A program made the translations under genes and the position numbers. Of a stretch of 64,000 bases of DNA, positions 14,509-49,277 are shown in pieces (the stretch's first letter is position 1; the number at the start of each line of letters is the position of its first letter). The stretch is from an uncultured Gemmatimonadales bacterium (lineage in GTDB: Bacteria; Gemmatimonadota; Gemmatimonadetes; Gemmatimonadales; GWC2-71-9), in NCBI GenBank assembly GCA_963844035.1, contig CAWJMT010000003.1:288001-352000 (forward strand), written 5' to 3'. The notes beneath the pieces are model-generated. The model worked only from the letters and a program-made list of their open reading frames with translations, searched no databases and was not told the DNA's origin.

Positions 14509-15054
14509 ATGGCAGAACTAGTGAGCCACGGCATTATCGACAGTATTCGTGGGCGGATCCGAGATATTCCGGACTTCCCGAAGCCGGGGATCGTGTTCAA
14601 GGATATCACGCCGCTGTTGCTCGATGCCGCGTTGTTCCGCCAGGTGGTGGAGCGGATGGCCGCCCCGTTCAGAGGGCAGGGCACGTCACGGGTGATTGCG
14701 ATCGAGTCGCGCGGTTTCCTGTTGGGCGCCCCGATTGCGATGGCGCTGCAGGCGGGGTTGGTTCCCATCAGAAAGCCGGGGAAGCTCCCCGCGGCGCGGA
14801 ATCGCGTCGAGTACGCGCTCGAGTACGGGACCGACGCGCTGGAGATGCACCGCGACGCGGTCGCCCCAGGGGATCGCGTGCTGATCGTCGACGACGTCCT
14901 GGCGACGGGTGGGACCGCCCAGGGAGCTGCCCGGCTCGTGCGTGGACAGGGGGCCGCGTTGGTCGGGTTCAGTTTCCTCGTCGAGCTTGATTTCTTACGC
15001 GGCCGGGAGAAGCTTCAACAGGAGCGGGTGGAGGCCTTGCTTCACTACACGTAA
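14509..15054 (+). CDS. apt: Adenine phosphoribosyltransferase
   Basis: IPDFPKPGIVFKDITPLL, ESRGF, RKPGKLP, YALEYGTD, IVDDVLATGGT. Confidence 0.97.
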   Translation: MAELVSHGIIDSIRGRIRDIPDFPKPGIVFKDITPLLLDAALFRQVVERMAAPFRGQGTSRVIAIESRGFLLGAPIAMALQAGLVPIRKPGKLPAARNRVEYALEYGTDALEMHRDAVAPGDRVLIVDDVLATGGTAQGAARLVRGQGAALVGFSFLVELDFLRGREKLQQERVEALLHYT

Positions 15055-15166: not shown

Positions 15167-15214
15167 CTGGGGTGCGACGAGCCGGATCCGGGTACGCATT
15201 TGAAGAGGACGAAC

Positions 15215-15901
15215 ATGGCCACATCAGCACCGGCGTCGCGGCGTGCCGCGACGTCTCCGCCACCCGACGACTCGGCGGCACTGACATCGGTAGCAACGTG
15301 GATCAAGGGGCATCGCCAGATCGCGAGTGCGATCGGGGCGGTGCTCGTGGTTGGCGGTGGGCTGCTGTGGTGGAATGGCATCTCGAGGAGCCGTACCGAG
15401 GCTGTTGCGGGGGAGCGTTTGTCCCAGGCTCGGCTGGCGTTCGATTCGCGCAACTATCCGCTGGCAGGAAGCGAGCTGTCCCAGGTAGTGGAAAACTACT
15501 CGGGCACCCGTGCCGCTCAGGAGGCGCAGCTGCTACTCGCCACCGTGCGCATGGCTCAGGGCCAGGAGCAGCAGGCGATCGATCAACTCAAGAAATTCGC
15601 GCCTGCGGCGGGCCCACATTTCCGCGCCCAAGCGTACGGCCTGCTGGGCGCCGCGTACGAGAATGCGGGTCAGTACAAGGACGCTGCCGAGGCGTATGAG
15701 ACGGCGGTGCCGTACGCCGAGTACGCATTCCTAAAGGCGCAGTACCTGTCGGACGCGGGGCGCAGCTGGGTGGCGCAGGGTGATACGGCCAAAGCGATTC
15801 TGGCGTACCGTACCATCGTGTCAAAGATGGATTCGACGGCGACCAGGAGTGAGGCGCAGGTGCGTTTGGGGGAATTGACCCGAGGGGCGGTGAGCCCTTA
15901 A
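15215..15901 (+). CDS. YfgM-like single-TM TPR protein (ancillary SecYEG subunit family)
   Basis: One N-terminal TM, YSGTRAAQEAQLLLA, several TPR helices; GAGGA SD before ATG 15215. Confidence 0.75.
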   Translation: MATSAPASRRAATSPPPDDSAALTSVATWIKGHRQIASAIGAVLVVGGGLLWWNGISRSRTEAVAGERLSQARLAFDSRNYPLAGSELSQVVENYSGTRAAQEAQLLLATVRMAQGQEQQAIDQLKKFAPAAGPHFRAQAYGLLGAAYENAGQYKDAAEAYETAVPYAEYAFLKAQYLSDAGRSWVAQGDTAKAILAYRTIVSKMDSTATRSEAQVRLGELTRGAVSP

Positions 15902-15931: not shown

Positions 15932-15959
15932 ACTTCGTATAATAGATGTTATGTTAAGT
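15932..15959 (+). other. dif: dif chromosome-dimer resolution site (XerC arm ACTTCGTATAA, spacer TAGATG, XerD arm TTATGTTAAGT)
   Basis: 11-6-11 structure; right arm differs by 1 nt from the E. coli XerD arm TTATGTTAAAT; lies in an AT-rich convergent intergenic gap at the gene-orientation switch. Confidence 0.92.
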
Positions 15960-15988: not shown

Positions 15989-16828
15989 CTAGATCATCAC
16001 CCCCCGAAACACCATCCGCGCCTCCCCCACAAGCCACACATCCTCGTACGCATCTGTTATCCCGCGTTGGCCCCTCACTACCAGCGGGCGGCCACTTCGC
16101 GTCCACAGGGTCACAGGAAGCGTCCCCAGGCCCCAGCGATCCAGCGTGCAGCCGACCGCGACGGCCCCGGTGCCACACGCGAGCGTCTCCCCTTCCACAC
16201 CACGCTCGTAGGTGCGCATCCGCCAGTCCGACGGGCCGGTGCCGGGGCTGACGAAGTTCACGTTGGCCCCAGCTGCCCCCAGAACGGGATCGTTCCGAAG
16301 CGCGCGGCCGCGGTGCTCAACATCGACCTGGCCCACGTCCCGGACCAGAACCACCAGATGCGGTACTCCCACCGTACTGAGGGCCGCCTGCTCCTCGCCC
16401 TCCGCCAAGTGGAGACGCGGCAGGGTCACCGGGACGCCAACCGGTGCGAGATGGAGTTCGGGCTGCCCGTCCGCACCTACCACGCGCACGTCGTAGGTAC
16501 CGGCATCGGTTTCGAGCCGTGCGACAGTGCCGTTCCCGAAGCCGATGTGGCCGGCGAGGCGGGTGGTGCAGAGGGCGGCGTTGCCGCACAGGGCGGCGCG
16601 GGACCCATCGCTGTTGAAGTAGACCATGCGGACCGCCTCGGGGCTCGCGCCGGGCTCGACGAACACGAGCCCGTCGGCGCCCAAACCGGTTCCCCGGGCG
16701 CATACCCCTCGGATATCGTCGGGAGTCCAGTCCGCCGGTCGGGACGTGCGACCGTCGATCATCACAAAGTCGTTCCCCGACCCCGTCATCTTGTAGACGG
16801 GGAGCCCGCTTAGATCCGGCCGGACCAC
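15989..16828 (-). CDS. dapF: Diaminopimelate epimerase (start approximate)
   Basis: KMTGSGNDF, GLGADG, NSDGSRAALCGNA, GVPHLV, ANVNF, RTYERGVEGETLACGTGA. Confidence 0.96.
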   Translation of the reverse strand: MVRPDLSGLPVYKMTGSGNDFVMIDGRTSRPADWTPDDIRGVCARGTGLGADGLVFVEPGASPEAVRMVYFNSDGSRAALCGNAALCTTRLAGHIGFGNGTVARLETDAGTYDVRVVGADGQPELHLAPVGVPVTLPRLHLAEGEEQAALSTVGVPHLVVLVRDVGQVDVEHRGRALRNDPVLGAAGANVNFVSPGTGPSDWRMRTYERGVEGETLACGTGAVAVGCTLDRWGLGTLPVTLWTRSGRPLVVRGQRGITDAYEDVWLVGEARMVFRGVMI

Positions 16829-17532
16829 GCCATCAATCGGAGGCGCGGCACCATCCAGATTGCCTCGCGGACGATCGTGCGGTTCATCTTGCTCTGGCCC
16901 TCGGTCCGGTCGACGAACACGATAGGGATTTCTTTCAACTTGAATTTTTTTCGCCATGCGCGTGCGCTCATTTCAATTTGAAAGGCGTAGCCGTTCGAGC
17001 GGACCTGAGAAAGGTCGATCGCCTCGAGCACCTGCCTGCGAAAACACTTGAACCCTCCCGTCAGGTCCCAAATCGACAGGCCGATGACCCAGCGGGCATA
17101 GATATTCGCCGCGTAGGACAGGAGGAGGCGTGTCATCGGCCAATTGACCACCGTGACCCTCCCCCCAAGGTAGCGGGATCCGAGCACCAGATCAGCGTCC
17201 TCAATGGCCTTGAGAAAGTCCTTTAAGTGGGCGGGATCGTGGGAGAAGTCGGCGTCCATCTCGAACAGGTAGTCGTAGCCGTGCTCCAACGCCCACCGGA
17301 ACCCCGTGATGTAGGCGGTGCCGAGGCCCCGCTTCCCCTCCCGCTGTAGCACGTGCACCCGGGGGTCGAGCCTGGCCAGGTCCACCGCCATCTGACCGGT
17401 GCCGTCGGGGGAGTTGTCGTCCACGATGAGGACCTCGAGACGCGGGTCCTGGGCGAGGACCAGCGGGACGAGGTTGCCGATGTTCATGGCCTCGTTGTAG
17501 GTCGGAATAATGACCAGCGCCCGCTCAGCCAC
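16810..17532 (-). CDS. Polyprenol monophosphomannose synthase-like GT2 (Dpm1/Ppm1-like)
   Basis: IIPTYNEA, VDDNSPDGT, KRGLGTAY, MDADFSHDP, GSRY, DLTGGFK, GYAFQIEM. Confidence 0.9.
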   Translation of the reverse strand: MAERALVIIPTYNEAMNIGNLVPLVLAQDPRLEVLIVDDNSPDGTGQMAVDLARLDPRVHVLQREGKRGLGTAYITGFRWALEHGYDYLFEMDADFSHDPAHLKDFLKAIEDADLVLGSRYLGGRVTVVNWPMTRLLLSYAANIYARWVIGLSIWDLTGGFKCFRRQVLEAIDLSQVRSNGYAFQIEMSARAWRKKFKLKEIPIVFVDRTEGQSKMNRTIVREAIWMVPRLRLMAWSGRI

Positions 17533-19886
17533 CCTGGCCCGTCCCTTGAGTCCGGGCGCTCGCGCGACGCCGCACGGCGTCCGCGCCCACGGCAGCGAGT
17601 ACCCCCAGCAGCATCAGCAGGGTGATCATTCCGCCCCGCCGGAATCCCGGGGCTGAAAATGAAAGCTCGATCGACCGGGCGCCGGCCGGCAGGGGCACGG
17701 CCATCAGGGAGTGCTGGGCCCGAACGACGCGGGCCGGGCTGGCCATCGACCGTGGCGTGCCAGGCCGGGTGATAGTTCTCCGACACGAACAGATACGCCG
17801 GCGTCGCGCGTGGGGCGCCGAGATCGAAGCGAAGGGCGCCGGGGCGCAGCTCGTGCACCGCCACCGGCGCGGCCACCGGCTCGGGAATCTCGTGCCCTTC
17901 CAGCGACGCAAGACCGATGTGTTGGTCCGGGGACACGAGCAGGATGCGGCGGAGGTCGAACCGGTGATCCATCAGCGTCGGCCACGGTCTGCGAGTCGCC
18001 CAGCTGCAGGGCCTCCTCCACGAGGAAGGCATACGGGACGGGATCGGTGACGCGATAGAGATACGCGGCTTGGCCGTCCGCGGTCGCGAGCGGTCCGTCC
18101 CCCACCGGGGCCAGGAGCGTGGTGCTGATCGGCTCGTTGATGATCACGTACCGCACGGCCAGGAGTTTCAGCAGGTTGGGGCTGCCGATGTTGCGCCATT
18201 CATTCTTGCCACCGAGCAGCTCGTCATAGCGTTGCAGCTCGTTGCCGTGGTACCCGAGCACCGAGCGGACGCGCTGCGACATCAGGTAGTTCTCGAGCCC
18301 CTGGTACTCGTTGATGGACAGCACCCGGTAGACACCAGAGTCGCCTTGCAGCGTCTTGACGATCGCATCGGGCGCGAAGCTCTCCCGGGCCGGCGGGCTG
18401 AACTGGATGTAGCGGCGCTCGACGCTCCAGAGGTCGAGCAGCACCAGGCCACCCACGAGCAAGGCCCATCGGGCGCCGCCGATGCGGTTCGCAAGGCGAA
18501 CACTGCACAGCGGCGGCGGTCGCGCCGATCAAGATCAGGACGCGCACGGTGTCGGCCTGGAAGGCGGGATAGTTCGCCGTCACGGCGCCGATCCGCTGCG
18601 GATCGGCCAGGCCCCGCATGATCCCCTCAAATGCGCCCGCGAACCCCATGAGCACGGCAACGCCCGCGCCCCCGAGCCACCACCAGAGGGGAGTCTTGCG
18701 AGTGTCCGGTGCGGCGGTGAGCAGCGCCTGCGTCCCGAACGCGGCCAGCACCGCCGTACTGAACGCCGTGAGGAAAAAGATCATCGACGGCGCGCGCGTG
18801 AGCTTGATGCCGGGGAGAATCGCGTAGGGGATGTGGTAGAACGGGGTGTGTCCTCCCAGCGCGAACAGGATCCCGTAGGCAGCGAGGAACACGAAGAACC
18901 AGGCGAGGCGGCGCTTGTCCCGGAGATACGGGGCGAACGTTGCCAGCACGAGCACGACGGCGCCCAGGTACTCGCTGTGGAGCTTGAAGAAGTTGCGACC
19001 CCAATACTGGCCCAGAATCCCCGAGAAGGCCGGCCAGACCGTGTTGAGGAGCTCTTCGGGGGGCATGGACCACGACGTGGCGTATCCCCACCGGTCCGCC
19101 GATTCCTTCGCCGCTCCCCGTGCCGCGTAGGCGAGATACTCCTGAAACGGCACGAGCTGGACGGCGGCGATGCCGAAGGCGACGCACCAGCGCGAGGACG
19201 AACGGCAGCGCCGAGCGCCACCAGGGAGCCGCCGGCCGCTCGTCGCTCACGAACACCAGGAACGCCCAGAAGAACCCCGCGGCCATGAGCAGGAAGTACG
19301 TCATCTGGAAGTGGGGCGAGATCAGGCTCAATCCCACCGTGGCGCCGAAGTACAGATAGCGCCGCCAGTCGTTGCGCACCACGGCCTGGTACAGGAACAG
19401 CAACGCCAGCGGCAGCAGCGCGCTCACGAACAGCTTGCCGTCGTGGCCCGGGCTCACGAGCGAGACGACCTGCCCCGTGAACATGTAGGCCGCACCGCCC
19501 ACGAACGCCGCGCCCCATTCGAGCTTGAGGGTGCGCAGGAACAGGAAGGTGAACAGGCCCGCCAGCACGATGTGGAGCATGAATCCCAGCGTGATCCCCA
19601 CGTCCACCGGGAACACGAGGCGCAGCAGGAAGGTCGGGTAAAATACGTCGCCCCCGATCGCCCCGATGAACGGCATGCCGCCGAAGATGTAGGGATTCCA
19701 TTGCGGAAATCCGCCCACGTGATGCCAGTACTCGGACTCGAACAGTCGGAACGGATATCCGTTCCGCATGTCGCTCATGGGGTTGATGAGGAAGTGGCCG
19801 GTCCAAAACGGCCAGAACGCCACGGCGACGGCGAGCGCGTAGATCAGCGCCGCGCTGAGAACCGGGAAGCGTTCGCGCGGCGTCAT
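17525..19886 (-). CDS. YfhO-family (GT-C fold) polytopic membrane protein; several frameshifts
   Basis: PQWNPYIFGGMPF, many TMs, GHDGK, C-terminal LFVSENYHPAWHA..VPLPAGARSIELSF + TM; ORF pieces 18627-19961, 18224-19153, 17704-18462, 17484-18032, 17525-17911. Confidence 0.8.
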
Positions 19887-20929
19887 GCGTTGCGCGGCGG
19901 GACGCCGCCCGGGAGTGCCATCACGACTCCTCCTGCGGCAAGCTCGAGCAGTGTGAGCCACACCCGGGACGCGACGGCCAGGATCACGGCGTCAGCCCCG
20001 CCGACGCCCACGGTCATCAAGGCTTTCACGAGTGCCGCCTCGCGCACGAGGAGTCCAGCGGGTGCGAAGACCGCGATAACGCCGGCGACGTAGCTCCCGG
20101 TGAATGCGGCGACGTAGTCGGACCACGATCCCGCCGGGCTGTCGAGCAGCCCCACGGCCAGGAGGCGGAACGCGGTGCCGTACAGGATCCAGGGGAGCAC
20201 CAGCATCACGGTGAACGCGCCGAGCTGGGCGGGCCGGAGCTGCGACCACAGCAGACCAACGGCCGGCACCCGGGCTTCGATCCACCGTCCCAGGCGCCCG
20301 CCCGGGCGCGGCAGCGCGAGCCCTACCGCCCCGAGGACCGCGGCCACCACGAGCGCCGCCTGCCACCAGCGCGCGTGCAGCACCGACGGGGTGAGCGCGG
20401 CGAGCACGAGCAGACCGGTAAAGAGGAGCACGATCTGCTCCAGCAGCACGGTCGCCGCGGCTGCCATCGTCGACAGGCCATACCGCCCCGACATCACCGC
20501 GAGGCTGGCGAACTGCCACACGGCACCGGGCAGAAAGCGGGCGAGGTTGGCGGTGAACCAGACCCGGGCCGCGTCGATGTAGCGGATCCGTTGGGCGCAC
20601 CAGCGCAGCGAAACCGTCCACGCGGCCAGGAGGAGGGCCAGGTTGGCCCACACGATGAGGGAGCCGGCGAGCAGCGGGATGGCATGCCAACTGAGGCGGC
20701 GGGCCTGAATGGCCGGCCAATGGGGAGCCGCCAACCGGACCAGATAGTATCCCGCGCCGACCAGAATCGCGATCTGCGCCACCCGCACCCACCACGTTGC
20801 TCCCCTGCCGGCCACGCGCGTCGTTGCGGGGATTCCCAGTGGGACCTCGATTGCCGGGGGTTGGGGTGATAGACCGTTTGCACGCGACTGAGGAGTGCCC
20901 GGGGCTCTCGTACCGGGCAAAGATACCAC
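19883..20929 (-). CDS. Lysylphosphatidylglycerol-synthase TM domain (flippase-like) protein; start uncertain
   Basis: NLARFLPGAVW, APAGLLVREAAL, ASRVWL; about 8 TMs. Confidence 0.8.
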   Translation of the reverse strand: MVSLPGTRAPGTPQSRANGLSPQPPAIEVPLGIPATTRVAGRGATWWVRVAQIAILVGAGYYLVRLAAPHWPAIQARRLSWHAIPLLAGSLIVWANLALLLAAWTVSLRWCAQRIRYIDAARVWFTANLARFLPGAVWQFASLAVMSGRYGLSTMAAAATVLLEQIVLLFTGLLVLAALTPSVLHARWWQAALVVAAVLGAVGLALPRPGGRLGRWIEARVPAVGLLWSQLRPAQLGAFTVMLVLPWILYGTAFRLLAVGLLDSPAGSWSDYVAAFTGSYVAGVIAVFAPAGLLVREAALVKALMTVGVGGADAVILAVASRVWLTLLELAAGGVVMALPGGVPPRNA

Positions 20930-20956
20930 GACACCGGTGCATGCGCGACAAGGGGT

Positions 20957-20993
20957 TTGCCGTGGTTTGACGCGGGGCTATAGTACAGCCCCG
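20957..20993 (+). promoter_or_regulatory. Putative sigma70 promoter TTGCCG-16-TATAGT overlapped by inverted repeat CGGGGCT-N7-AGCCCCG
   Basis: -35 at 20957-20962, -10 at 20979-20984, inverted-repeat arms at 20973-20979 and 20987-20993, directly before ATG 20994. Confidence 0.5.
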
Positions 20994-22220
20994 ATGCGTA
21001 TCCTGCACGTCCTCACCGCCTTCCCGCGCTCCACGGACGACGTCATCGTACCCTGGCTGGTCGAGCTGCTGAAACACCTGCGCGCGGCGGGGCACGAGGT
21101 CGAAGTCCTGACCTCGGCATACAAGGGTGGCGGCAACCGCGAGTTCGCCGGAATCCCCGTGCACCGGTTCCGCTACTTTCCCGCGCGCTGGGAGGATTTG
21201 ACGCACGAAGAAGCGGCGCCCGACCGCATGCGACACTCCTGGCGCTACCGCATCATGCCGGTGTTCTACGTGGCGTGTGGCGCGTGGGCCGCGTGGCGGC
21301 TGGGGCGGCGGCAACGCTTCGACGTCGTGCACGTGCACTGGCCAGTGCCCCATGCGCTGTTCGGCTGGCTGATCCGGCGCGCCTGCGGCGCACGGCTGCT
21401 GTCGTCGTGGTACGGCGCCGAGCTGCGGTTGGTGAAAGGCTCCCTGCCCTGGCTGCGGCCGTTCGTCCGGTGGGCGCTCGAGACCTCCGACCAGGTGGTG
21501 GCGATCTCGTCTCACACGGCTCGCGAGATCGCAGCGGTCTCCGACGTCCAGCCGCGCATCATCCCCTACACGATCGGGTTCACCGCGGCGGGCGGGGCCG
21601 CGCCCCGGACCGCGCCGCGCGACGGGTTCGGCGTGCTGTTCGTCGGGCGGCTGGTCGAGCGCAAAGGGGTGCGCTATCTGATCGAGGCGGTGCAGCGGCT
21701 GTCTCCCGACCGGCGCGCGCGGCTGGTGATCATCGGTGACGGACCGGAGCGGCAGCGGCTGGAAGAACAGGCGCGGCGCAGCGGCCATGAGGGCCAGGTC
21801 GAGGTGCGGGGTCGCGTGTCCGACCGCGAGCTGCGCCAGGCGTATGCCGACGCGAGCGTGCTTCGTGTTGCCCGCGATCGTGGACACGCGGGGAGACACG
21901 GAAGGCCTGGGCGTCGTCTTGCTCGAAGCGATGAGCTATCGGGTCCCGGTGGTCGCGAGCGACCTGGGCGGGATCACGGACATCGTTACGCGCGGAGGAG
22001 ACGGGGCTCCTCGTGCCGCCGGCCGACGCCGCCGCCCTGGCGGCGGCGCTCGAGCGGCTGGCGGGGGATGCCGCGCTGGCCGACACGGCTCGGCGAAGCC
22101 GGGTACCGCGTCGTGCAGGAGCGCTTCAGCTGGCCGGCGATTCTTGCGCAGTGGGAGGCGTGCTATGCGGCGACGCTCCGGGCCCCGCGCTCCCTCAGCG
22201 GCGCTGCAGCAGAAAAATGA
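20994..22220 (+). CDS. GT4-family glycosyltransferase (frameshifts ~21865-22085)
   Basis: MRILHVLTAFP, DVVHVHW, LFVGRLVERKGV, IIGDGPER, EGLGVVLLEAMS, FSW. Confidence 0.92.
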   Translation: MRILHVLTAFPRSTDDVIVPWLVELLKHLRAAGHEVEVLTSAYKGGGNREFAGIPVHRFRYFPARWEDLTHEEAAPDRMRHSWRYRIMPVFYVACGAWAAWRLGRRQRFDVVHVHWPVPHALFGWLIRRACGARLLSSWYGAELRLVKGSLPWLRPFVRWALETSDQVVAISSHTAREIAAVSDVQPRIIPYTIGFTAAGGAAPRTAPRDGFGVLFVGRLVERKGVRYLIEAVQRLSPDRRARLVIIGDGPERQRLEEQARRSGHEGQVEVRGRVSDRELRQAYADASVLRVARDRGHAGRHGRPGRRLARSDELSGPGGRERPGRDHGHRYARRRRGSSCRRPTPPPWRRRSSGWRGMPRWPTRLGEAGYRVVQERFSWPAILAQWEACYAATLRAPRSLSGAAAEK

Positions 22221-22896
22221 ACTGGTACTCCCAGGCGAGCGGGAGCAGCCTCCACGCCATCTCGAGCAGCCAGCCTTTGGCGGCGTAGGGGGGGGAGCGG
22301 CGGCGAGGATTGGAGCGCCACTTGACCGCATGCCAGCGATCGGGGACCACGCGCTGCACGCGCAGGCCGTGATCTTCGAAGGTGCGGGTCCACTCCTCGA
22401 GCGAGAGCAGGCGTTCGTTGATGTCCTGCTGCGCAGTGCCCTGCTGACCCATCAGCTTCCACCCGGCGAAATTCCGGTTGGGCACCATGATGCAGAAGTG
22501 CGCGTCCGCCTTGGCGACCCGCAACATCTCGCGCAGTCCCCGGCCGACGTCGAGAAAGTGCTCGAGCGAGCCGAGGCAGGTCACGAAGTCGCAGCTCGCA
22601 TCGCGGACGCAGAGGTCTTCCCCTGCACAGACGGCGACGGGAATCGCGGGTGATACCTGGTGCACGAGCCGCACCGCTGCATCCGAGAGATCCACGCCGT
22701 AGGCGGTGAGCCCGCGCTCGCGGGCGGCCCGGAGCAGAAATCCGGAGCCGCAGCTCACGTCGAGCAACGTCGCGCCGGGGCGGGCATCCAGCAGATCGAG
22801 CACCGGCGGATAGGCCTCGAATGGACGCATGCTGTCGAGGCCGAGCGACGCGTAGCGCCGGTTGTACCAGGAGCGAACTTCCTGTGCGCTGGGCAT
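22195..22896 (-). CDS. Class I SAM-dependent methyltransferase
   Basis: LLDVSCGSGF, YGVDLS, CDFVTCLGSLEHF, REMLRVAK. Confidence 0.9.
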   Translation of the reverse strand: MPSAQEVRSWYNRRYASLGLDSMRPFEAYPPVLDLLDARPGATLLDVSCGSGFLLRAARERGLTAYGVDLSDAAVRLVHQVSPAIPVAVCAGEDLCVRDASCDFVTCLGSLEHFLDVGRGLREMLRVAKADAHFCIMVPNRNFAGWKLMGQQGTAQQDINERLLSLEEWTRTFEDHGLRVQRVVPDRWHAVKWRSNPRRRSPPYAAKGWLLEMAWRLLPLAWEYQFIFLLQRR

Positions 22897-23846
22897 CAGC
22901 GCTTGTCGCGCAGCTGCTCCACCTCGCGCCGCAACGCCCGCAGCTCCTCGAGCGCACCCGCCACCATCTCGCCCACGAATCCAAAGCCAAACAGGATCAG
23001 GCCCGCCAGGACCAGCAGCATGATGAGGTTCAGGATCGGGCGGAACCCCACCCCGTAGACGTAGCGCTCCACCAGTGCGTAGACGCCGATCAGGAAGCCC
23101 AGCAAACACAGCAGGGCCCCGGACACGCCGAAGAACAGCATCGGCTTGCGGCCGAACCGCAGCTGGAACCACACCGAAAGCAGGTCGAGGACGCCGATCG
23201 GAATGCGCCCGATCCCGAATTTCGATTTGCCGGCGCGCCGTGGGTGCAGTGGGATCGGCCGTTCCGCGAGGCGGAACCCTTGCGTCGCGGCGATCACGAC
23301 CATGAAGCGGTGCCAGTCGGGCCGGCTGGGGATCCCGTCCATCACCTCACGGCGGAACGCCTTGACCGAGTTCAGGTCGGTGACGCGTACACCGAAGAGC
23401 CAGCGGCACAGGCCATTGTAGACCCAGGAGACGAACCGCTTGTCGTAGTGACCCTGTTTGGCGCCGGTAACCACGTCCGCCTCGCCCGCCAGGATGGGTG
23501 CCAGGAGGCCCGGGATGTCGGACGGCGCGTACTGCAGGTCCGCGGGATAGAACACCAGCACTCTGCCCCGCGCGGTTTCGGCGGCCGACTTGAGGGAGTC
23601 GGCGATCCCGCGCCGGCTGCGGTGCGTCACGACCTTCAGGAACGGGTTCGCCGCGGCGAGCTCGTGCAGCACGGCCGCCGAGCCGTCCTCACTGCCGTCG
23701 TTCACCACGACCAGCTCGCCGGCATACGGGAGGGTCGACAGGGCCTCCCGGGTTTGCCGCACGAACTCGGGGAGGTTGTCGGCTTCATCGTTGGCCGGGG
23801 CGAGAATGCTGACGTCGGGGATGACGACCGGGGTGGCGAGGCTCAT
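22896..23846 (-). CDS. GT2 polyprenyl-phosphate glycosyltransferase (ArnC/GtrB-like) with two C-terminal TMs
   Basis: SILAPANDEADN, VVNDGSEDGS, ADLQY, DWHRF, RRAGKSKFG, RKPMLFFG. Confidence 0.88.
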   Translation of the reverse strand: MSLATPVVIPDVSILAPANDEADNLPEFVRQTREALSTLPYAGELVVVNDGSEDGSAAVLHELAAANPFLKVVTHRSRRGIADSLKSAAETARGRVLVFYPADLQYAPSDIPGLLAPILAGEADVVTGAKQGHYDKRFVSWVYNGLCRWLFGVRVTDLNSVKAFRREVMDGIPSRPDWHRFMVVIAATQGFRLAERPIPLHPRRAGKSKFGIGRIPIGVLDLLSVWFQLRFGRKPMLFFGVSGALLCLLGFLIGVYALVERYVYGVGFRPILNLIMLLVLAGLILFGFGFVGEMVAGALEELRALRREVEQLRDKR

Positions 23847-25304
23847 ATCCGCTTCCGCATGCGGGCCGGCAGGATCCCGAGCTGGTCGCGGTACTTGGCC
23901 ACTGTACGCCGGGCGATCTTCACGCCCTTCTGATCGAACAACTCGACGATCTGCTGGTCGGTGAGCGGGCTCTTGGTGTTCTCGTCCCCGACGAGCTTCT
24001 CGATCTGCGCCTTGATCGACCGGGCGCTGGCATCCTCTCCCGTCGTGGTCGTCAGGCCGCTCGAGAAGAAGAACTTGAGCGGCAGCAGGCCGCGGGGCGT
24101 CTGCACGTATTTCTCGTTGGTCACCCGGCTGACGGTGCTCTCGTGCATGTTGATGACGTCGGCCACCTCGCGGAGCGTGAGCGGCTTCAGGAACTCGACG
24201 CCCTTCTCGAAGAACTCCCGTTGCCGGTCGACGATGAAGTTCATCACCTTGAGCATCGTCTGGCGGCGCTGCTCGATCGCCTGGATCATCCAGTGCGCGC
24301 TGTTCATCCGCTGGTTGATGAACTCCTTGTTCTCGCCCTGAAACTGCTTCTTGTCGCGGGCGATCTCCTGGTAGACCTTGGAGATGCGCAGCCGCGGCAG
24401 GCCGGTGTCGTTCAGGAACACGTGGTACTGGCCGTCGATCTTGTCGACGACCAGGTCGGGGATGATGTAGTGGTCGGTGGCCGCGGCGTGCTGCAGGCCG
24501 GGCTTGGGATCGAGCTTCGCGAGGTCATCGGCCGCGGCCTGGACCTCCGTGGGGGAGAGCCCGAAGCGCTTGGCCAGGTCGCTCCAGCGGTGGGCGATGA
24601 GGTCGTCGAACGCTTCCTTCACCAGACCGGTAGGTCAGCGTCTCGGTGAGCTTGGCGTCCTCGAGCTGGAGCAGCAGGCATTCGCGCAGATCCCGCGCGC
24701 CCACGCCCGGCGGATCGAGCTGCTGAATCACCCGCAGCATCTCCTCGGCCTCGGTGAGCGTGTACGGCTGCACCTCGACGTCGATCTCCGACTCGACGGC
24801 GAACTCCTCGAGCAGCTGGTTGGCGCCGCGCACGATGTCCTCGAGGCCCGCGCCCAGGTAGCCGTCCTCCGCGATGTTCCCGAGGAACTCGTCCGCCAGC
24901 AGGCGTTGGCGCGGGTTCAGGTCCAGCATCTGGACCTGATCCTTCAGGTAGTCGGAGAGATCCTTGGCCTCGACCGGCACCGGATCGACGTATTCCCGCG
25001 CCTCGCTGAAGTCGCGCGGCGCTCCGTCGGCGCCGTTGTCGAGCAGCAGCTTTTCCCAGTCCGGCTCATCGTCGCCCGCGGTCTCGGCCTTCTCCTTTTC
25101 GGCCTTCGCCTCGTCGACCAGCGGGACCTCGGTCTCCTCCTCCGGCTCGACCATTTCGAGGAACGGGTTCCCCAGCAGCTCCTGCTTGAGGTGCTGCTGC
25201 AGGTCGAGCAGCGGCATGTACAGCAGGTCCATCGCCTGATACAGGCGTGGATTGATCCGCAGCTCCTGGCGGAGCGCCGCGTGCTGATGCAGGCCGGTTT
25301 TCAT
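23843..25304 (-). CDS. rpoN: RNA polymerase sigma-54 factor (frameshift ~24630)
   Basis: Gln/Leu-rich region [29 protein letters not shown], RpoN box ARRTVAKYR. Confidence 0.97.
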
Positions 25305-26505
25305 GCGGCGGGCGTGAGTCGCGCGCGCAGGCGCGCCGTGAGGGTGGGGCCGAAGTACAGGTTCGCCACCTGGTTGTCGAACACCAGCTCGCTGCACCGT
25401 GCCGGCGACCTGCACCTTGCCTTCGAACATGATGTACGCGCGATCCACGATGTCCAGCGTTTGCTCGACGTTGTGGTCGGTGATCAGCACGCCGATGCCG
25501 CGGTGGCGCAGCCCGGCGACGATGGTCTGAATGTCGTGCACGGCGATCGGGTCCACGCCGGCGAACGGCTCGTCCAGCAGCATGAATTTCGGCTGGGTGA
25601 CGAGGGCGCGGGTGATTTCGAGCCGGCGCCGCTCACCGCCCGAGAGCTGGTAGGCCTTCTGGCGTCGCAGGTGCGTGATGGTCAGCTCCTCGAGCACGCC
25701 CTCGAGCCGGGCGGTCCGCTCGGCGTCGCTCAAGGGCAGCATCTCGAGGATCGCCAGGACGTTCTCTTCGACGGTCAGCTTGCGGAACACCGACGGCTCC
25801 TGCGCCAGGTAACCGAGGCCGCGCCGTGCGCGCAGGTACATGGGCTCGTGCGTGATGTCCTGGCCGTCCAGGGTGATCTGCCCCTGATCGGCCCGGATCA
25901 GGCCCGTCATCATGTAGAACGTGGTGGTCTTCCCCGCCCCGTTCGGGACCGAGCAGCCCGACGATCTCGCCTTGCTCGAGGTGGATGTTGACGTCGTTGA
26001 CCACCTGGCGGCTCTTGTAGGCCTTCCGGAGGTGCTGCGCGTCGAGCACGCTGGCGCTGCCGCCGACGCGTGCATGGGCGGCGCTGGCCGACTCATCGCG
26101 CACCAGGGCGCGTTTGGCGGCGTCGCGGAACAGCCGGATCAGCTCGTGGCGGTCGTCGGGGATATCGAACCACACGTCCAGCGAGAACGCGACGGGCGCC
26201 TCGCTCCAGAGTCCGCCGACGGGCAGGGTCACGATGTCGAGCTGCGCCAGCCGCGGGAGCACGGAGTTGCCGAGATGGGTGCGCACGTCGTCGCCGGAGA
26301 GCTGCGCGGGGTCCGGGGACCGCGCCCCCATGGTTTCCTGCTGCAGGGTCAGGTAGTCCTCGCGGTAGGCGATCGCCAGCTCCGCGAACGAGGTGCGGCC
26401 GAGCGAGTCCGCGATGCGCGCCAGCGCGGCGACCCCGAGCGTGAGCGACGAGCTGCCCACGGCGAGCAGCTCTGCCAGGCGGGGCGTGAGTGGCCGGGCG
26501 GTCAC
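25301..26505 (-). CDS. lptB: LPS export ATPase LptB with ~150-aa N-terminal extension (frameshifts ~25950, ~25395)
   Basis: [62 protein letters not shown]; located between lptA-like gene and rpoN. Confidence 0.93.
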
Positions 26506-27869
26506 CGGGTGCCTTTCGGTTTTGTGGCGGGGGCTTTCCCGCCCTTGACGCTGTCACTCGCGGTGCTGTCGGGCGGCGGCGCCGGCGGGATGGGTTCGAG
26601 CTGCACCCCGTCCGCCTGCCCCGTCACCATCACCCGGTCGATCTTGTCCCCCTTCATCGCGACGTCGATCACGGCACCGCGCGAGTAGTTGAGCGAGGGT
26701 GGGGCCGTGGAGTCGCGCTGATTGTGCAGGTGCGTGAAGGCGCGCGCGGAGCCGCGGGCCACCAGGCGGTCGAGGGCCCGCGTCGGACTTGCCCGGCGCG
26801 GCGGTCCCTTGAGTCCAGTGTCCGGTGATCGTGTCGCCGGCGATCCAGTTTTCCTCCGCCGCTCTCGGTCGTGTCCCGCCTGGAGGTCGAGCGTGCGTCG
26901 CGGTAGGCGCGGGCCGCGGTGAGCACCTCGTTGGGGGCGTCGAGCGCGAGCGAGTCCGCCTCAATGGCATGCTGGCTCGACATCGCCTCCGGACGGGACG
27001 AGTCGCCCCAGGCGAACACCTGCTGCAGCTTGCGATTCCCCATCACGAAATGGATGGTGTCCGCGGTGAGCTGCCAATCCGCACCGATCGCCCTCCCCGA
27101 ACCGAGCGCCTTGATGACGCGCACCTCTCGCTGCTGCATCGCGAACTCGATGCGTTTGCCGAGCAGGCGATAGCTGCGAACGCCCTGGCCCCGGACCTGG
27201 GGCTTGCCGATCAACACGGCGATCCCCGCGGTCTCGTTGCGCATCATGGAGTCGGCGCGGGCCGCAAGATCGCTGCGGTCGATCGTGACGTTGCCTCCCG
27301 CCCACATGCGGTCGTTGCCCTTCATCCGCACGCGGTCTCCGACGATGATATAGGGCTCGCTCGAGTCGCCGCTGGGCCGGTAGGTGATGGTGGGGCGCGT
27401 GGTGGCGTACATCTCGGAGGTGTCCCGGATGCCGTGGGCGACCCGGTAGTAGGTCAGGTTGGGGCCGCGGAGCACGGAGCCGCTGGGAAGCGTTGTCGCG
27501 ACGACGTCCTTGTGCGCCTCGAGCCGCTCCTGGCGGACAAAGTACGACGCCGACATCGCGTCGATGGAGAAGGCCGCGTCGCGGATCTCGACCTGACCCA
27601 TCAGGTCGAGGCGCCCCACGCCTGCGAACCAGGCGATGCTGTCCGACGCGAGCGTGCTGGTCGTTCCCTGGCAGTGGGCACGAACGCCGCCGCCCGCGAA
27701 CAGGTTGGTCTCCCCCTTGCGCACTTCGACCTGCCGCCCGGAATGCCCGACCGTATCGATCACGACGTGGCAGGGGCGACCCGCTCCCGTGTCACGGGGC
27801 GGCGGCGGCGCGCGACGGCTTGGCGGCCGGGTGTTGGATCAGGGTGAGGGCGAGCATGGCCAGGATCAT
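26502..27869 (-). CDS. OstA/LptA-like beta-jellyroll periplasmic protein (long form; several frameshifts)
   Basis: Signal peptide, repeated beta strands (ASDS, ARADS, LTADTIHF, IEADSL, WIAGDTI, NYSRGAVI); located between lptC and lptB. Confidence 0.78.
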
Positions 27870-28405
27870 TGGTCCGGAAGCGAAAACTGGCCGCCCGTCC
27901 CGGTGGGATGCCGGGCCACGACGTCCTTGAACTCCGGGTCGGAGACGAACCCCTCACCCTCGACGTGGCGGTCGGGGGCGTCGAACACGAAGGGGACGTC
28001 GGATGTGACTTCGTTTTTGGTTTCGCTGTAGTGCAGCGTCGCAGTCTTCAGGGTGCGGCCGTCGGTCGTGACGACGGAGACATTGCCGTGCGCTTCCATA
28101 TCCCCGTTGCGCCAGTTGTACGTTCCCTCGCGCGACGTCAGGGTGGATGACTCCCCGCCATCGAGCTTATAGAACGTGATGTGCACGTTGCGCAGCATGG
28201 CGGTTTGCGTCGGTGAGTAGAAATAGGCGGTGTCGGCGCGTACCCGCGCCCGCTGCACACCCGCTGCCGTGACGTAATGCGACATGCCGATCAGCACCTG
28301 ATCCGCGGTATCGGCCAGCGTCGCGGTCGCCGTCGAGCGGCCTCCATCCCGGCAGGCGAGCACGGCTGCCGCGATCCCCAGCGGCACGAGCAGGCGCCCG
28401 ATCAC
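27866..28405 (-). CDS. lptC: LPS export periplasmic protein LptC
   Basis: Lipobox VLAC, ARVRADTA, LTSREG, GNVSV, LKTATLHY, EGEGF; canonical kdsD-lptC-lptA-lptB-rpoN order. Confidence 0.85.
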   Translation of the reverse strand: MIGRLLVPLGIAAAVLACRDGGRSTATATLADTADQVLIGMSHYVTAAGVQRARVRADTAYFYSPTQTAMLRNVHITFYKLDGGESSTLTSREGTYNWRNGDMEAHGNVSVVTTDGRTLKTATLHYSETKNEVTSDVPFVFDAPDRHVEGEGFVSDPEFKDVVARHPTGTGGQFSLPDQ

Positions 28406-29376
28406 GCGGCGCCCGCCTTCATGAGGTCGTGCAGATGCGCCATCCCCACGACGCGCTCCCCGCCGTCCAGCACCGGGAGCGCCATGATCCCGTGCTGCTC
28501 CATCACGCCGATTGCGGTTCCCGCGAGCGTGTCGGGCGTGGTGGTCTTGGGCGCGCGGCTCATGACGTCGGCCACGGGGGTGTCGAGGAAGCGATCGGTG
28601 CGCTCCATCAGCCGGGTCAGGTCACCCGCCGTCACGACGCCCACCAGGGCGCCCTGGTCATCGACGATGGCCACCGTGCCGCGCCGCTTCGCCAGCAGGA
28701 CGACGCACTCCCGCATCGGGCGATCGGTGCGCAGCGTGGGCAGGTCGCGTGTGACCATCACGTCGCCTACGCGGACGAGCAGCTTCCGTCCCAGCGAGCC
28801 GCCCGGGTGGAGCGCGGCAAAGTCATCGCGACGGAATCCCTTGTGCTCGAGCAGCGCGACGGCCAGCGCGTCGCCCAGGGCGAGCGCCGCCGTGGTGCTG
28901 GCGGTGGGGGCCAGCGTCTCCGGGCAGGCTTCTTCGGTGACGGCCGCATCGAGCACCACATCGGCCTGGCGTGCGAGCACCGAGTCCGGCTCGCCGGTAA
29001 TGGCGACGATCGGGACACCGAATCGCTTCAGCTGCTCGATCAGGCCGAACAGCTCGTCCGAGGCTCCGCTTTTCGAGAGCAGTACGGCCGCGTCCTCGCG
29101 CCCGACCACTCCCAGGTCGCCGTGCAGGCTATCGACGGGATGGAGGAACGTCGCGGGCGTGCCGGTCGACGTGAACGTGGCGGCGATCTTGCGGGCGATC
29201 AGGCCGGACTTGCCGAGACCCGACACGATCACGCGTCCCTTGACCCCCGCCAGCAGGCGTAGCGCGGCGGCAAAGCTCGGCCCGAGCCGCTCGGCGACCC
29301 GGCGGATCGCTGCAGCTTCGAGCAGCAGCACCCGCCGCCCACGCTCAACGGGATCCGCGGCTTCGGCCGGTGCCAC
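28402..29376 (-). CDS. kdsD: Arabinose-5-phosphate isomerase (KpsF/GutQ, SIS + CBS)
   Basis: SGLGKSGLIARKIAAT, FLHPVDSLHGDLG, APTASTT, HPGGSLG, CBS pair. Confidence 0.95.
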   Translation of the reverse strand: MAPAEAADPVERGRRVLLLEAAAIRRVAERLGPSFAAALRLLAGVKGRVIVSGLGKSGLIARKIAATFTSTGTPATFLHPVDSLHGDLGVVGREDAAVLLSKSGASDELFGLIEQLKRFGVPIVAITGEPDSVLARQADVVLDAAVTEEACPETLAPTASTTAALALGDALAVALLEHKGFRRDDFAALHPGGSLGRKLLVRVGDVMVTRDLPTLRTDRPMRECVVLLAKRRGTVAIVDDQGALVGVVTAGDLTRLMERTDRFLDTPVADVMSRAPKTTTPDTLAGTAIGVMEQHGIMALPVLDGGERVVGMAHLHDLMKAGAA

Positions 29377-29923
29377 GAGGAGTCTCGAAGTATTGGCGTC
29401 AGGAGCCCCGGCCACTCGCCGCGGGCCTTGAGCAGGCGTTCGGCCACTTCCCGGACGGCGCCCTGCCCGCCCGGGACCGTGGTCACGTACCGGGCGGCTG
29501 CCTTCACTTCACGGGTCGCGTTGGCCGTCGCGATCGGGAGGCCCACCGCCCGCAGCACCGGTATGTCCGCGAGGTCATCGCCGACGTAGGCGCACTCGTC
29601 GAGCGTCACGCCCCGGCGACTCCAGGACCTCAACCAGCGAGGCGAGCTTCTTCTGGGGTGCCACCTGCAACAGGTCATCGACCTCCATCTCCTTCGCGCG
29701 TGCCTCCGTTGCTTCGGACTCGCGGCCGCTGACGAGGACGACCGGGAGGCCCACGGTCCGCAGCAGCTTGACGCCGAGGCCGTCCAGGACGTGAAAGCGC
29801 TTGAACTCGAGCGGATGGTTGGCGACCAGGCCGATGTAGAGGCCGCCGTCGGTGAGCACGCCGTCCACGTCGAGGCCGATCAGCTTGATGCGCTTGGCGA
29901 GCGCGGCGGGGATGGTCCAGGAC

Positions 29924-29931
<8 letters not shown>
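29345..29931 (-). CDS. kdsC: KDO-8-phosphate phosphatase (HAD); frameshifts, end approximate
   Basis: [36 protein letters not shown]. Confidence 0.93.
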
Positions 29932-33156
<3,225 letters not shown>

Positions 33157-33211
33157 GTGGGAAGATACAAAAGTCGTGCCGTGGAGTCTAGAGAGTCACG
33201 CTTCGCCACCA

Positions 33212-33784
33212 CTAAAAAGTTTTGCAGCAAGCGCTTACCGTGCTCGGTTCCGATGGACTCCGGGTGGAACTGCACGCCCAAAGATCGGGTGGGTCCGGTG
33301 CCTCATGGCCATGATCTCGGCGCCCTTGGGTCGGTCGGCGCTCCACGCGGTGACCTGCAGCTCCTTGGGGAGCGACTTGTGGCTCGACGACGAGCGAGTG
33401 ATACCGCATGCCGGTCACCGGGCTCGGAATCCCTTCGAACAGCGACGTCCTGTGTCGTGCACCACGCCGCAGGTCTTGCCGTGCATCAGTCGGTCGGCCC
33501 GCACGACTTTGCCGCCGAACGCCTGGCCGATCGCCTGGTGGCCGAGACAGACGCCGAGGATCGGGAATCTTCCCTGCCAGCGCCGTCACCAGAGGAACCA
33601 GGATCCCGGCGTCGGACGGTGTGCAGGGACCGGGAGAGAGCACGGCGGCCTTGGGCTTCAGCGCCAGGACTTCGTCGACGGTGACCGCGTCATTGCGGTA
33701 CACGGCGGGCTCCGCACCCAGCTCGCCCAGATACTGGACGAGGTTGTAGGTGAAGGAGTCGTAGTTGTCGAGGACGAAGAGCAT
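33212..33784 (-). CDS. Anthranilate/aminodeoxychorismate synthase component II (TrpG/PabA GATase); frameshifts, 3' end uncertain
   Basis: [44 protein letters not shown]. Confidence 0.92.
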
Positions 33785-36036
33785 TTAGAGCTTCATCCTC
33801 CGCACATACTCCCCGAAGCGTGGATCCGACCGCAGCGGATCGTGCATGGGCTCGACCTTCAAGTACGCGAGCCAACCCCGACGATGCTCGTACGCCCGCT
33901 CGAGCCACGCAAATGCCTCGTCACGGTTACCGAGGCCCAGGTGAACCATCTGCGGGGCGACCGGAGAGACGTATTCTGACTGGCTGCGCGCCTCGAGCTG
34001 GGCGACAATCGCCTCCGCTTCCTGGCGGTTGCCGCGCACTGCCAGAAGGTACCCGAGGCTTGCGGTGGCGTACGCACTTTCCCCGAGCATGGCGGTGGCT
34101 TCGCGCAAGGCGCGCTCCGCCTGGTCGTACGCCCCTTGTTGTGTCAGGGTGAGGCCGAGGAGCCTGTAGGTCTCCTGCGAGGTCGGGTTCATCGCGATGG
34201 CTCGCCGCAGGTGATCGAGCGCGGTGTCGTAGCGCCGCGCGTAGTAGTACAGCCAGCCGAGTGAGCGGCGAATCGACACGGAGGCCGGATCGAGGTCCAG
34301 GGCGGCGTGCCCTTCAGCCAGGGCCTGGTCGAGCTGGCCGAGCGCCGCCAGCACGAAGCTGTACCACTGCCGCCCCGTGGCGTAGCTGGGGTTGAGCTCC
34401 AGCGCCCTCCGGAAGGTGCGCACGGCGCCGTGCCAGTCCCAATCGTAGATGAACAGGACCCAGGCGAGCGATGTGTGCGCCTCGGCCAGGGTGTCGTCGA
34501 GCGCCAGGGCCTTCCGGGCGAACTCCCGGGCGCGGGTGAGTCCCCCGTCCACGGGTACGCCCCGGTAGTCGACCTGCATCCCATACGCGTCGGCCAAGCC
34601 GGAATAGGCCAGAGCATAGTTCGGGTCGGCGGCAATCGCCTGCTCGAAGTAGTCGATCGATTCCCGGACCCCCTCATCCGAGCGCTTGTTCCAGGAATAG
34701 CGCCCGCGCAGGTAGAGCCCGTACGCCGCGACGTTCTCGGTGTAGCGACGCGGTGTGGGATCGGCGACCTCCGCGAGGAACGTCGTCCGCAGCGTGGTCA
34801 CGATGGTGCGGGCGATCTCGTCCTGAATGGCGAACACGTCGTCGAGCCGCCGATCGTAGCGGTCGGACCAGAGGTGCCGCCCGTCGTCGGCGGCGGTGAG
34901 GCGCGCCGTGATCCGCAGCTGGTCGCCGGCTTTGCGGACAGACCCTTCGAGCACCGCGGAGACGCCGAGCAGCGCCCCGATGGCGCGCACGTCCTGCGGC
35001 TTGTTCTTGAGCGCGAAGACCGAGGTGCGGGACGCCACGCGGAGTCCCCCGACCTTCGTGAACGCGTTGATCAGCTCTTCGGTGATGCCGTCGGAGAAAT
35101 AGTCGGTCTCCGGGTCGGGGCTCATGTTCACGAACGGCAGCACCGCGAGGGAGCGGGTGGTGCCGACCAGCGTGGTCTCCGGCCGCGGCCCCTGCCCCGC
35201 CTCGAGCGCTTCGAGGAAGCGCGGCCACGCTGGGATAGCGATCTTCCGGGTCCTTGGCGAGCGCGCGGGCGATCGCCTGCTCCACCGCCGGGGGCGTTTC
35301 GGGCCGCAGCGAGCGCACCGGCCGTGGATGCTCGGTCAGCTGACGCGCCATGATCGAGCGGGCGTTGGGACCCGCGAACGGCGGCTCGCCGGCCAGCATC
35401 TCGAACAGCACGCAGGCCAGACTGTAGAGATCGCTGCGCACGTCGAGCTCGCGCTCGGCGCTCGCCTGCTCGGGGCTCATGTATGCCGGGGTGCCCAGGG
35501 CCAATCCCGTCTCCGTGACCGGGTCGACGCCCGCGGCGGAGACGGCCCGCGCGATCCCGAAATCCGCGACCATGGCGTGGCCGTCGGCCAGGAGAATGTT
35601 CTCCGGCTTGATGTCCCGGTGCACGAACCCCTGGCGGTGCGCGTAGTCGAGCGCGGCGCCCACGTCGCGAGCCATACGGAGGGCATCGCGCACGGGACAG
35701 CTGCTGCTCGCGCATCAGCCGATGCCGCAGCGACTCGCCCGACACGTAGGGCATGACGTAGTAGAGCAACCCGGCCGCTTCGCCCGAGTCGATGAGCGGG
35801 AGGATATGTGGATGGGTCAGCAGCGCCGCGATCCCGATCTCGCGCAGAAACCGCTCGGCGCCGAGCTGCAGGGCGAGATCGCGCCGCAGCGCCTTCACCG
35901 CCACTTTGCGGTGATGCTTGCGGTCCTCGGCGAGATAGACGGTGGCCATGCCGCCCCGCCCCAGCTCGCGTTCGATCGAGTAGCGGGCGGCGAGTGCGGA
36001 AGCGAGGTCGAGAGGGACTTGGGTCGCGTCGGCCAT
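33785..36036 (-). CDS. Hanks-type Ser/Thr kinase fused to TolB-like and TPR domains (two frameshifts)
   Basis: LGRGGMATVY, VAVK, HRDIKPEN, DFG, GTPAYMSPEQ; AVLPFVNMS..YFSDGITEELI; TPRs ending LRSDPRF. Confidence 0.93.
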
Positions 36037-36090
36037 TCGGCGGGATAATACCACGGCGGCCGACGCGGGCGGGAGGGCGCTCCCGGTCTG

Positions 36091-36276
36091 CTAGAACTCG
36101 CGCTTCTTCATTTCCGAGAAAAAGTCCCGCAGGTCCGTATCTTCCTCGTGGTCGGAGGGAAGCGTGCTGTCGTATTGCCGGCGCCGGTTGGGTTTCCCCT
36201 TGGCCGGATTCGCGGCCGCCTTCGCGGCGTTCTTGCGGGCCAGTGCTTCTATCTTCTGATCGTCGTTCTTCGCCAT
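36091..36276 (-). CDS. Small charged protein (61 aa), function unknown
   Basis: Strong SD (AAGGAGG) before ATG; MAKNDDQKIEALARK...DLRDFFSEMKKREF. Confidence 0.72.
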   Translation of the reverse strand: MAKNDDQKIEALARKNAAKAAANPAKGKPNRRRQYDSTLPSDHEEDTDLRDFFSEMKKREF

Positions 36277-36378
36277 CGTCGGTGCCTCCTTACGGACAGC
36301 GTCGTCGGGGTCGCCATTCAATTTAGCGCATTCTGGGCGCGGCGTCACCTGTCTGGCCCTGAACGGCGTCGGCGAGGA

Positions 36379-36869
36379 TCAGCGGGGAGAACGAAAGCGC
36401 ACGTGCCACTTGGGGATGAGCGATCCGATGCCGGCGCCTACCAGGGCGCCCCCGGCGCCGCCGACGGCGGCGCCGGCGAGCGCGCAGTCGGCCCATTGGT
36501 CTTCGTTCCCGATCTCACCGTCGTCGGCTCGCCCGATCGAGCAGGCAACGGCGACCGCGTAGCCGCCCACCACGCCTCCGGCGACCGCGCCGACAATGGC
36601 GGCCGTCTTGGTCGCCCGGCCACGCTCGTGCAGCTCCTCGATCCGATCAACCGCCAACCATCGCTCGCCGCTTGGTCCCGCGAGAAGCAGCGAGTCCGCG
36701 GTCACGCGTGCCGAGGCGTCCTTCGAGCTGTTCCCCGCCCGTGAGCCCGACTCTGATGAGGGTTCCGGACCGGATGCGAGCGAGCGCGGCGCTGGCTTCG
36801 CTCCCGGGCGGCTCCGGTGCCGGGCGGGGAAGCGATAAGAGCGGCGATCAGTAGGGCAGCAGTACTCAT
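36379..36869 (-). CDS. Exported glycine-zipper membrane protein (frameshift near the 5' end)
   Basis: Signal MSTAALLIAALIAS; GAVAGGVVGG..C..C..GAAVGGAGGALVGAGIGSLIPKW. Confidence 0.65.
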
Positions 36870-36883
36870 GGGCTGGTTCCCGA

Positions 36884-37811: not shown

Positions 37812-38310
37812 CGCCTGGTGCCTGTCCTATCAGGCGGCGCGCTTGCGCCAGATGATGCTCGAGGTGCGCGACGTAGTCCTCGATGAGATAGCCCAGCGTG
37901 GCCGGCTCCGAGCGAGGCACCGGCCGCCACCCCAGCGCGTCGAGGTTGTGCTCCGGCCGCGGTCGCTCCAACACCGCGGGCGGGATGACGCGCACGACGT
38001 GCACCAGCTGTTGGTTGTAGGCGGCCCACAGCGTCACCAGAGCGGGCCACTCCGCGTCCTGATACCGCTGGCTATTCACCCAGGCGTCCTGCGCATAACC
38101 GGGAAAGACGAGCGGATCCTGCATCTGCGCCTCAACGAAGCGGCGATGATTGTTGGCGGCGGAATCGATCAGGTGGCCGATGATTTCCTTGACGCACCAT
38201 TTCCCGGGGGCTGGACGCCGGCTCGCCTGAACGTCGGAGAGCCGGCTCAAGTCGACCGCGGCCTGCCGCACGCTGTGTTGCCAGCGGGCGAGCAGGACAT
38301 CGCGGTTCAC
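37804..38310 (-). CDS. DinB/YfiT-family protein
   Basis: [34 protein letters not shown]. Confidence 0.9.
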
Positions 38311-39332: not shown

Positions 39333-39417
39333 GACAACCTCCTAGGGTTGATGCTCCGACGATCGCGAGATGAAGGTCGCGGGGCTCGTATAAGCTGCGG
39401 GCAAGTTGGGGTGGGCG

Positions 39418-40010: not shown

Positions 40011-40015
40011 GGGAC

Positions 40016-41944: not shown

Positions 41945-41966
41945 GCTCGGGCATGCTCGGGCACGC

Positions 41967-45300: not shown

Positions 45301-45303
45301 GCG

Positions 45304-49276: not shown

Positions 49277-49277
49277 G

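Follow-up and report, generated by a model that had tools for sequence, protein, structure and literature searches.

Kono et al. 2011 predicted a dif site in Gemmatimonas aurantiaca T-27 at position 1,930,284 (PMC3025954; available excerpt). Tomasch et al. 2024 (PMC11237797) described a high-strand-bias region of Gemmatimonadota that is centred on the terminus, and equated its strand switch with the end of replication on the basis of raw GC skew. The main text of that paper contains the whole words dif, Xer, KOPS and FtsK 1, 0, 0 and 0 times, respectively, 'dif' does not occur in the two text supplements, and none of the four is mapped. A literature search, conducted mostly outside subscription journals, found no publication that ties the strand switch to dif. 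As a dif site in the phylum was already predicted in 2011 and the terminus-centred strand bias is already published, the site described here is in itself routine.

The window analysed here is a stretch of 64,000 nucleotides, contig C3:288,001-352,000 of a 3.47-Mb assembly in 39 contigs that is 84% complete (the study genome, G000). As in the region described in PMC11237797, core genes, the rRNA operon (G000:C3:247,600-252,600) and nuo genes nearly all point toward one switch near ter, and the bias is weaker elsewhere. Unlike in that study, the switch is mapped here to a gap that contains dif, and silent sites often switch elsewhere.

The study site is identical to the predicted G. aurantiaca dif, as given in the excerpt, at 23 of 28 positions (9/11, 5/6 and 9/11), the right arm reading TTATGTTAAGT in the study site and TTATGTAAACT in G. 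aurantiaca. The G. aurantiaca dif lies 370 bp from dapF, with xerD 21 kb further on (Table S2, PMC11237797), which makes the study site its positional orthologue. Both sites are computational predictions. The dif of B. subtilis, whose recombinases we take to be CodV and RipX, is identical to the study site at 22 of 28 positions and that of E. coli at 20 of 28, and both share the 11-6-11 layout. The study genome also has in common with these two systems a pair of Xer-family genes, an FtsK gamma domain and converging GGGNAGGG octamers. It differs from them in that Tus was not found, in that its dif lies within a block of core genes instead of a variable terminus region, and in that activity in this phylum is predicted.

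The site and its neighbours

The 28-mer ACTTCGTATAA TAGATG TTATGTTAAGT occupies window positions 15932..15959 on the + strand (C3 position 303,932), exactly where the first-pass annotation had placed a dif site in a strongly AT-rich gap. The left arm ACTTCGTATAA (15932..15942) is predicted by convention to bind XerC, and the right arm TTATGTTAAGT (15949..15959), identical to the E. coli arm at 10 of 11 positions, is predicted to bind XerD. Between them, the central 6 bp TAGATG (15943..15948), which are partly variable among relatives, form the predicted strand-exchange region. The arms are complementary to each other at 8 of 11 positions, forming an imperfect inverted repeat. The gap that holds the site is 87 bp long (15902-15988) and has a G+C content of 40%, compared with ~68% for the genome, the lowest among the 79 called gaps of 50-200 bp on C3.

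To the left, the gap is bordered by a gene for a TPR-type protein (15200..15901, + strand), labelled 'yfgM-like' in the first-pass annotation, for which all TPR-family hits were below cut-off. To the right lies dapF, encoding diaminopimelate epimerase (15989..16828, - strand), assigned by TIGR00652 (170.6 bits, cut-off 114.65) and by synteny. Both neighbours are conserved and both point at the site.

A search of the whole 3.47-Mb assembly found no second 28-mer at up to 8/28 mismatches and no second pair of arms at up to 5/22 mismatches. When the arms of three published dif sites were used as queries, all three picked 15932-15959 first genome-wide (4-5 mismatches in 22, with the runner-up at 6-7), so no better dif match exists elsewhere in the assembly. 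The site is thus single-copy, conserved and similar to published dif sites; it also lies at a switch in gene strand and KOPS-type polarity, 21 kb from xerD. Judged from these sequence features, it is very probably the dif site of the chromosome, as had been proposed, where XerC/XerD would unlink daughter chromosomes. As such it would be an ordinary dif, with its activity predicted.

Gene strand, octamer polarity and recombination machinery

Genes were called using a purpose-built hexamer-model caller. Within the window, all 17 genes left of dif are on the + strand and 47 of the 50 right of dif are on the - strand. The + calls on the right are a GT4 gene (20994-22220), the one exception already recognised in the first-pass annotation, and two further low-scoring ORFs (25921-26688 and 35806-36048), which look like shadows of frameshifted minus-strand genes. 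Across the whole of C3, 271 of 304 genes left of dif are on + (89%) and 88 of 106 right of it are on - (83%), whereas on ten other contigs 64% of genes are on the inferred leading strand. The strong co-orientation with replication that had been claimed is therefore local, and it is published for the phylum.

The change-point in gene strand falls at contig positions 303,621-304,408 and that of the KOPS-type octamer GGGNAGGG at 302,673-305,164. Both intervals bracket dif at 303,932, and both signals flip within ~1.3 kb of it. Octamer counts on the two strands are 66:11 left of dif and 4:26 right of it (Fisher p=2.5e-12), and the closest copies on either side (14674..14681 on +, 17157..17164 on -) point to dif. 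On the other contigs, the octamers keep their polarity whichever strand the gene is on (178:59 for leading and 105:39 for lagging genes). We take GGGNAGGG to be the KOPS motif of E. coli, and by analogy it may serve as the FtsK signal of this phylum.

In ten long stretches, the study genome included, each of the two change-points brackets dif in nine. The octamer change-point of G150 lies elsewhere, yet its counts flip from 16:7 to 5:22. On the dapF side of dif in G121:C3 (L288-L293), genes lie on both strands, 50 of 112 toward dif, yet octamer polarity persists (3:37). An old inversion or insertion, after which polarity was restored, would fit this pattern.

A XerD-family gene is present at about 36884..37811 on the - strand, 21 kb right of dif, in agreement with the xerD called at 36.9-37.8 kb in the first-pass annotation. 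It is closer to TIGR02225 (XerD) than to TIGR02224 and, owing to a single additional base near 37.58 kb, is broken across two frames. This frameshift is probably a sequencing or assembly error, because 21 of 82 and 26 of 90 orthologues on C3 (26-29%) are frame-changed, compared with 0-6 of 51-100 (0-7%) in eight other targets. A true xerD pseudogene was rejected on the grounds that frame changes are contig-wide and that XerD is intact and over the cut-off in five of six genus-mates. About one quarter of genes on C3 are frameshifted or falsely fused (lptB-rpoN, kdsB-pyrG-kdsA, mscL), for example at window 24.5-26, 30.3-33 and 37.8-38.9 kb. This pattern is typical of unpolished long reads and makes pseudogene calls in this genome unsafe.

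The xerD gene had been named as the cognate recombinase; it is not alone, as a xerC-like gene is found on another contig, C4. Its best family is TIGR02224 (XerC), with a score of 330.5 bits just under the cut-off of 335.15, and it sits in a topA-trmFO-xerC-hslV-hslU cluster (neighbour names read by eye). An FtsK gamma domain was detected on C2 (96.9 bits) and dnaA is located on C9; Tus was not found in this 84% complete genome. The third tyrosine recombinase is an integron integrase (G000:C10:44670-45653, L033; TIGR02249 412 bits, cut-off 265). Many short ORFs surround it, one pair of which is toxin-antitoxin-like as labelled by eye, and the cassette array is only putative. Separately, from ~413,000 to the end of C4 (455,565) the G+C content drops from ~67% to 25-29% and the gene caller finds no genes, likely reflecting a chimeric join or contamination.

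The action of FtsK and XerC/XerD in E. coli and B. subtilis, as covered in the available excerpt of PMC3025954, is the basis for the mechanism proposed here. FtsK would follow the converging GGGNAGGG motifs and so bring sister dif sites to the division septum. There XerC would sit on the left arm and XerD on the right arm, FtsK would activate XerD, and the two recombinases would swap strands in the central 6 bp, thereby resolving chromosome dimers.

GC skew, silent sites and the meeting place of the forks

An inflection of GC skew had been expected near 15.9 kb, and it is not seen there. Raw GC skew is +0.041 left and +0.003 right of dif, with no inversion. Its best change-point is at window ~44.9 kb (+29 kb from dif), the cumulative maximum is at ~59.8 kb (+44 kb), and the change-point of four-fold-site skew is at +36 kb. 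With the turn of the skew lying 29-44 kb away and silent sites beyond dif resembling those of a lagging strand, the claim that the window spans the replication terminus holds loosely and fails for the exact site.

Silent sites were scored on a codon-family-adjusted scale trained on the other contigs (leading = 1, lagging = 0). The minus-strand genes right of dif (n=76) score -0.24 (CI -0.52 to 0.14), with the lowest values within the first 40 kb, while blocks on the left score 0.84-1.57. The ribosomal-protein block scores 1.35 (CI 0.24-2.82), so the lagging-like signal does not obviously come from high expression. The lagging-like zone of genes pointing at dif extends over ~15989..56000 on the - strand, and we infer that forks may overrun dif into it. 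Among 11 genomes compared using homology-defined coding segments (<=40 kb), six show the left-right asymmetry at p<0.05 (G000, G022, G027, G032, G150 and G082), the other five lack it, and the opposite asymmetry is seen in none, with p-values uncorrected for multiple tests or phylogeny.

On balance, this silent-site bias makes it somewhat probable that forks run past dif and that termination is by fork collision on its dapF side. The dif site itself would not halt forks, which would meet approximately opposite the origin, on the dapF side. The fork arriving from the TPR-gene side would then usually pass dif, and the next 30-100 kb would be copied head-on to genes. Using dnaA as a proxy for the origin, dif lies 42-48% of the way round in four single-contig relatives, three of which share one genus, and the opposite point is always on the dapF side. 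In three single-contig genomes the asymmetry fades toward that point. In G150, lagging-like values (-5 to -8) give way to +7 between +100 and +120 kb, with the dnaA antipode at +97 kb. Single 20-kb windows in G117 (n=4) give -7, +2 and +7.5 at 0, +50 and +130 kb, with the opposite point at ~+100 kb, and those in G082 (n=8) give -6, -6, -1.5, -8, 0 and +5 out to +340 kb, with the opposite point at ~+390 kb. In the far windows of G082, plus-strand genes are too few (10, compared with 61 on the minus strand) for a difference between the strands to show (p=0.76).

Termination near dif, and not at it, is described in the available excerpts of Kono et al. 2011 and Kono et al. 2012 (PMC3025954, PMC3317982). 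Fork overrun shares with the fork-collision termination of PMC3317982, as excerpted, that termination is not fixed at dif and that the skew shift is explained by where forks meet. Unlike in that excerpt, overrun here would run head-on through a strongly co-oriented block of core genes.

The alternative is that dif is the fork meeting point, as held in the first-pass annotation and in PMC11237797, and that the silent-site bias to its right reflects intrinsic codon usage of the LPS, fatty-acid, nuo and suc genes located there. We consider this possible but rather unlikely. The raw cumulative GC-skew maximum does lie <=0.5 kb from dif in G150, G075, G121, G154 and G082, the distance from dif to the skew shift in G. 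aurantiaca is near zero in the table of Kono et al. (PMC3025954; excerpt), and the five genomes without asymmetry also fit a coincidence of dif and fork meeting point. However, in G082 and G150 the raw peak is accompanied by silent-site asymmetry (p=6e-6 and 3e-4, respectively), which means that a raw peak can arise from the coding-strand flip, and the signature in G150 reverts in the +100-120 kb bin, about where the point opposite dnaA lies. Intrinsic codon usage is further disfavoured by the adjustment of the silent-site test for amino-acid family. Moreover, for segments homologous to the same query proteins (overlapping, not identical, sets) the left-right difference ranges from -2 to +38 points by genome; the asymmetry is therefore not a fixed property of the genes.

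Two features that might have stopped forks were considered and rejected. A conserved fork-stop ~40 kb right of dif was suggested by the first four genomes, and six more gave raw maxima from -75 to +0.5 kb. Head-on rRNA operons do not provide a trap, as an operon lies 43-71 kb left of dif and points at it in nine of ten stretches, with none on the right within 100-200 kb; the 80 kb available for G150 contain no rRNA operon. In G027:C4, between ~50 kb on the left of dif and 40 kb on its right (L205-L209), a silent-site skew of ~+20 points runs in one direction through dif and is absent just outside, which simple overrun does not fully account for.

Probable overrun of dif by forks casts doubt on the published placing of the end of replication at the strand switch. 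Tentatively, and aware that it may well prove wrong, we propose that the co-oriented core-gene block of the terminus is pinned to dif and to FtsK-guiding polarity and not to fork meeting, that forks of the shorter replichore continue for 40 to >200 kb beyond dif and meet core genes head-on, and that the skew peak at the switch is a coding artefact. Were this true, the strand bias would be kept by a segregation-transcription conflict, with FtsK travelling in the direction of RNA polymerase, or would be a fossil of an older terminus, and, contrary to the publication, would not be kept by a replication-transcription conflict. The mismatch between a gene and octamer switch anchored at dif and the mutational signature makes the published explanation testable. 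Should gene orientation remain tied to dif although forks meet away from it, the phylum's terminus-centred strand bias would call for a revised explanation. Raw GC skew would also, if forks meet off dif, be unfit for placing ter in strongly strand-biased regions.

Conservation of the site and other readings of the motif

With <=3 mismatches allowed, 32 of 41 genomes contain the arms (reversed control 0/41). A 16-base core with one mismatch allowed was found in 128 of 151 genomes of the phylum, and exactly once per genome in 75 of 75 same-family genomes (reversed controls 0). As kin are not independent, these counts show conservation and carry no statistical weight. The TPR gene and dapF both flank the site in 23 of 29 relatives' loci and at least one does so in all 29, with invariant orientation, which bears out the conservation between these two genes that the first-pass annotation had predicted. 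The same locus is seen across three families, and the flanking proteins of the window match Gemmatimonadales-titled loci (DapF up to 68%), from which the study genome is taken to belong to the Gemmatimonadales. In 26 family loci for which the core was the sole criterion of choice, positions 1-4 and 27-28 are conserved in 18-25 (left-arm positions 1-4, which are outside the search pattern, in 18-23), compared with at most 14 for upstream positions. Five genomes missed by the first pattern were checked using dapF as a guide: in G011 and G102 a more diverged site, with 4 and 6 arm mismatches respectively, adjoins dapF, the loci of G025 and G010 end at or near contig ends, and the dapF search gave no match in G030. 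One per genome and between the same two genes across Gemmatimonadales, dif is a fixed, base-precise landmark that can orient fragmented assemblies.

An exact search of GTDB genomes for the 22 arm bases matched at least 120 stretches. Among the 80 matches listed, with taxa taken from record titles, 61 were from Gemmatimonadota, 11 from Bacilli/Firmicutes, three proteobacterial (one an Acinetobacter record), one each from Gemmiger, Slackia and Solirubrobacteraceae, and two unnamed. The Solirubrobacteraceae-titled contig has a Gemmatimonadales gene context around the site and may be misbinned. Sixteen of the 80 listed loci lack the flanking genes and come from records titled Bacillota, Actinomycetota or Proteobacteria, and the flanking proteins of the window matched none of the low-GC loci with exact arms. 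Identical copies of all 22 arm bases in Bacilli and proteobacterial records show that neither arm is restricted to this lineage, and the lineage-specific XerC arm proposed earlier must be given up; the left arm is also identical to the B. subtilis site at 9 of 11 positions. The low-GC, Bacilli-type contigs and the three proteobacterial records with identical arm bases are L047, L066, L068, L083, L096, L098, L100, L103, L106, L111, L113, L115, L117, L070, L077 and L090. Identical arms in such distant records could reflect convergence on a near-consensus dif, or mobile carriage.

It is very improbable that a Xer-exploiting mobile element uses the study site for attachment, or that the site is a plasmid-type pdif. 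Identical arms in the Acinetobacter record and other distant phyla, among the matches listed, would fit such an origin, as would a second, degenerate copy in G026 and G103. The site is nevertheless single-copy, flanked by core genes with mobile genes absent beside it, and at the same locus in three families; octamers converge on it at chromosome scale, and its presence once per genome in all 75 family genomes largely refutes a mobile origin. Two core matches were found in each of G026, G028 and G103. The second, degenerate dif-like sites of G026 (G026:C1:968062-968089) and G103 (G103:C4:34120-34141) are remote from the main site and are possible attachment sites of Xer-exploiting elements.

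That the motif, rich in A+T and placed between convergent genes, acts as a promoter, terminator or regulator site and resembles dif by chance is hardly credible: it does contain TATAAT, and a weak sigma-70-like match (9/12) overlaps it on the - strand, but both neighbouring genes end at the gap, leaving a promoter without an obvious target, no terminator-like hairpin was found at the site, conservation begins at position 1 of the 28-mer, and an Rfam scan gave no family except an upstream tRNA. The left arm resembles what we take to be part of loxP; a construct artefact was rejected, since neither the right arm nor the 6-bp spacer matches loxP and relatives carry the site in synteny. ARAGORN called a tRNA-Arg(GCG) at window 1541-1624, within the ORF of a PLP-enzyme, which is probably a false call.
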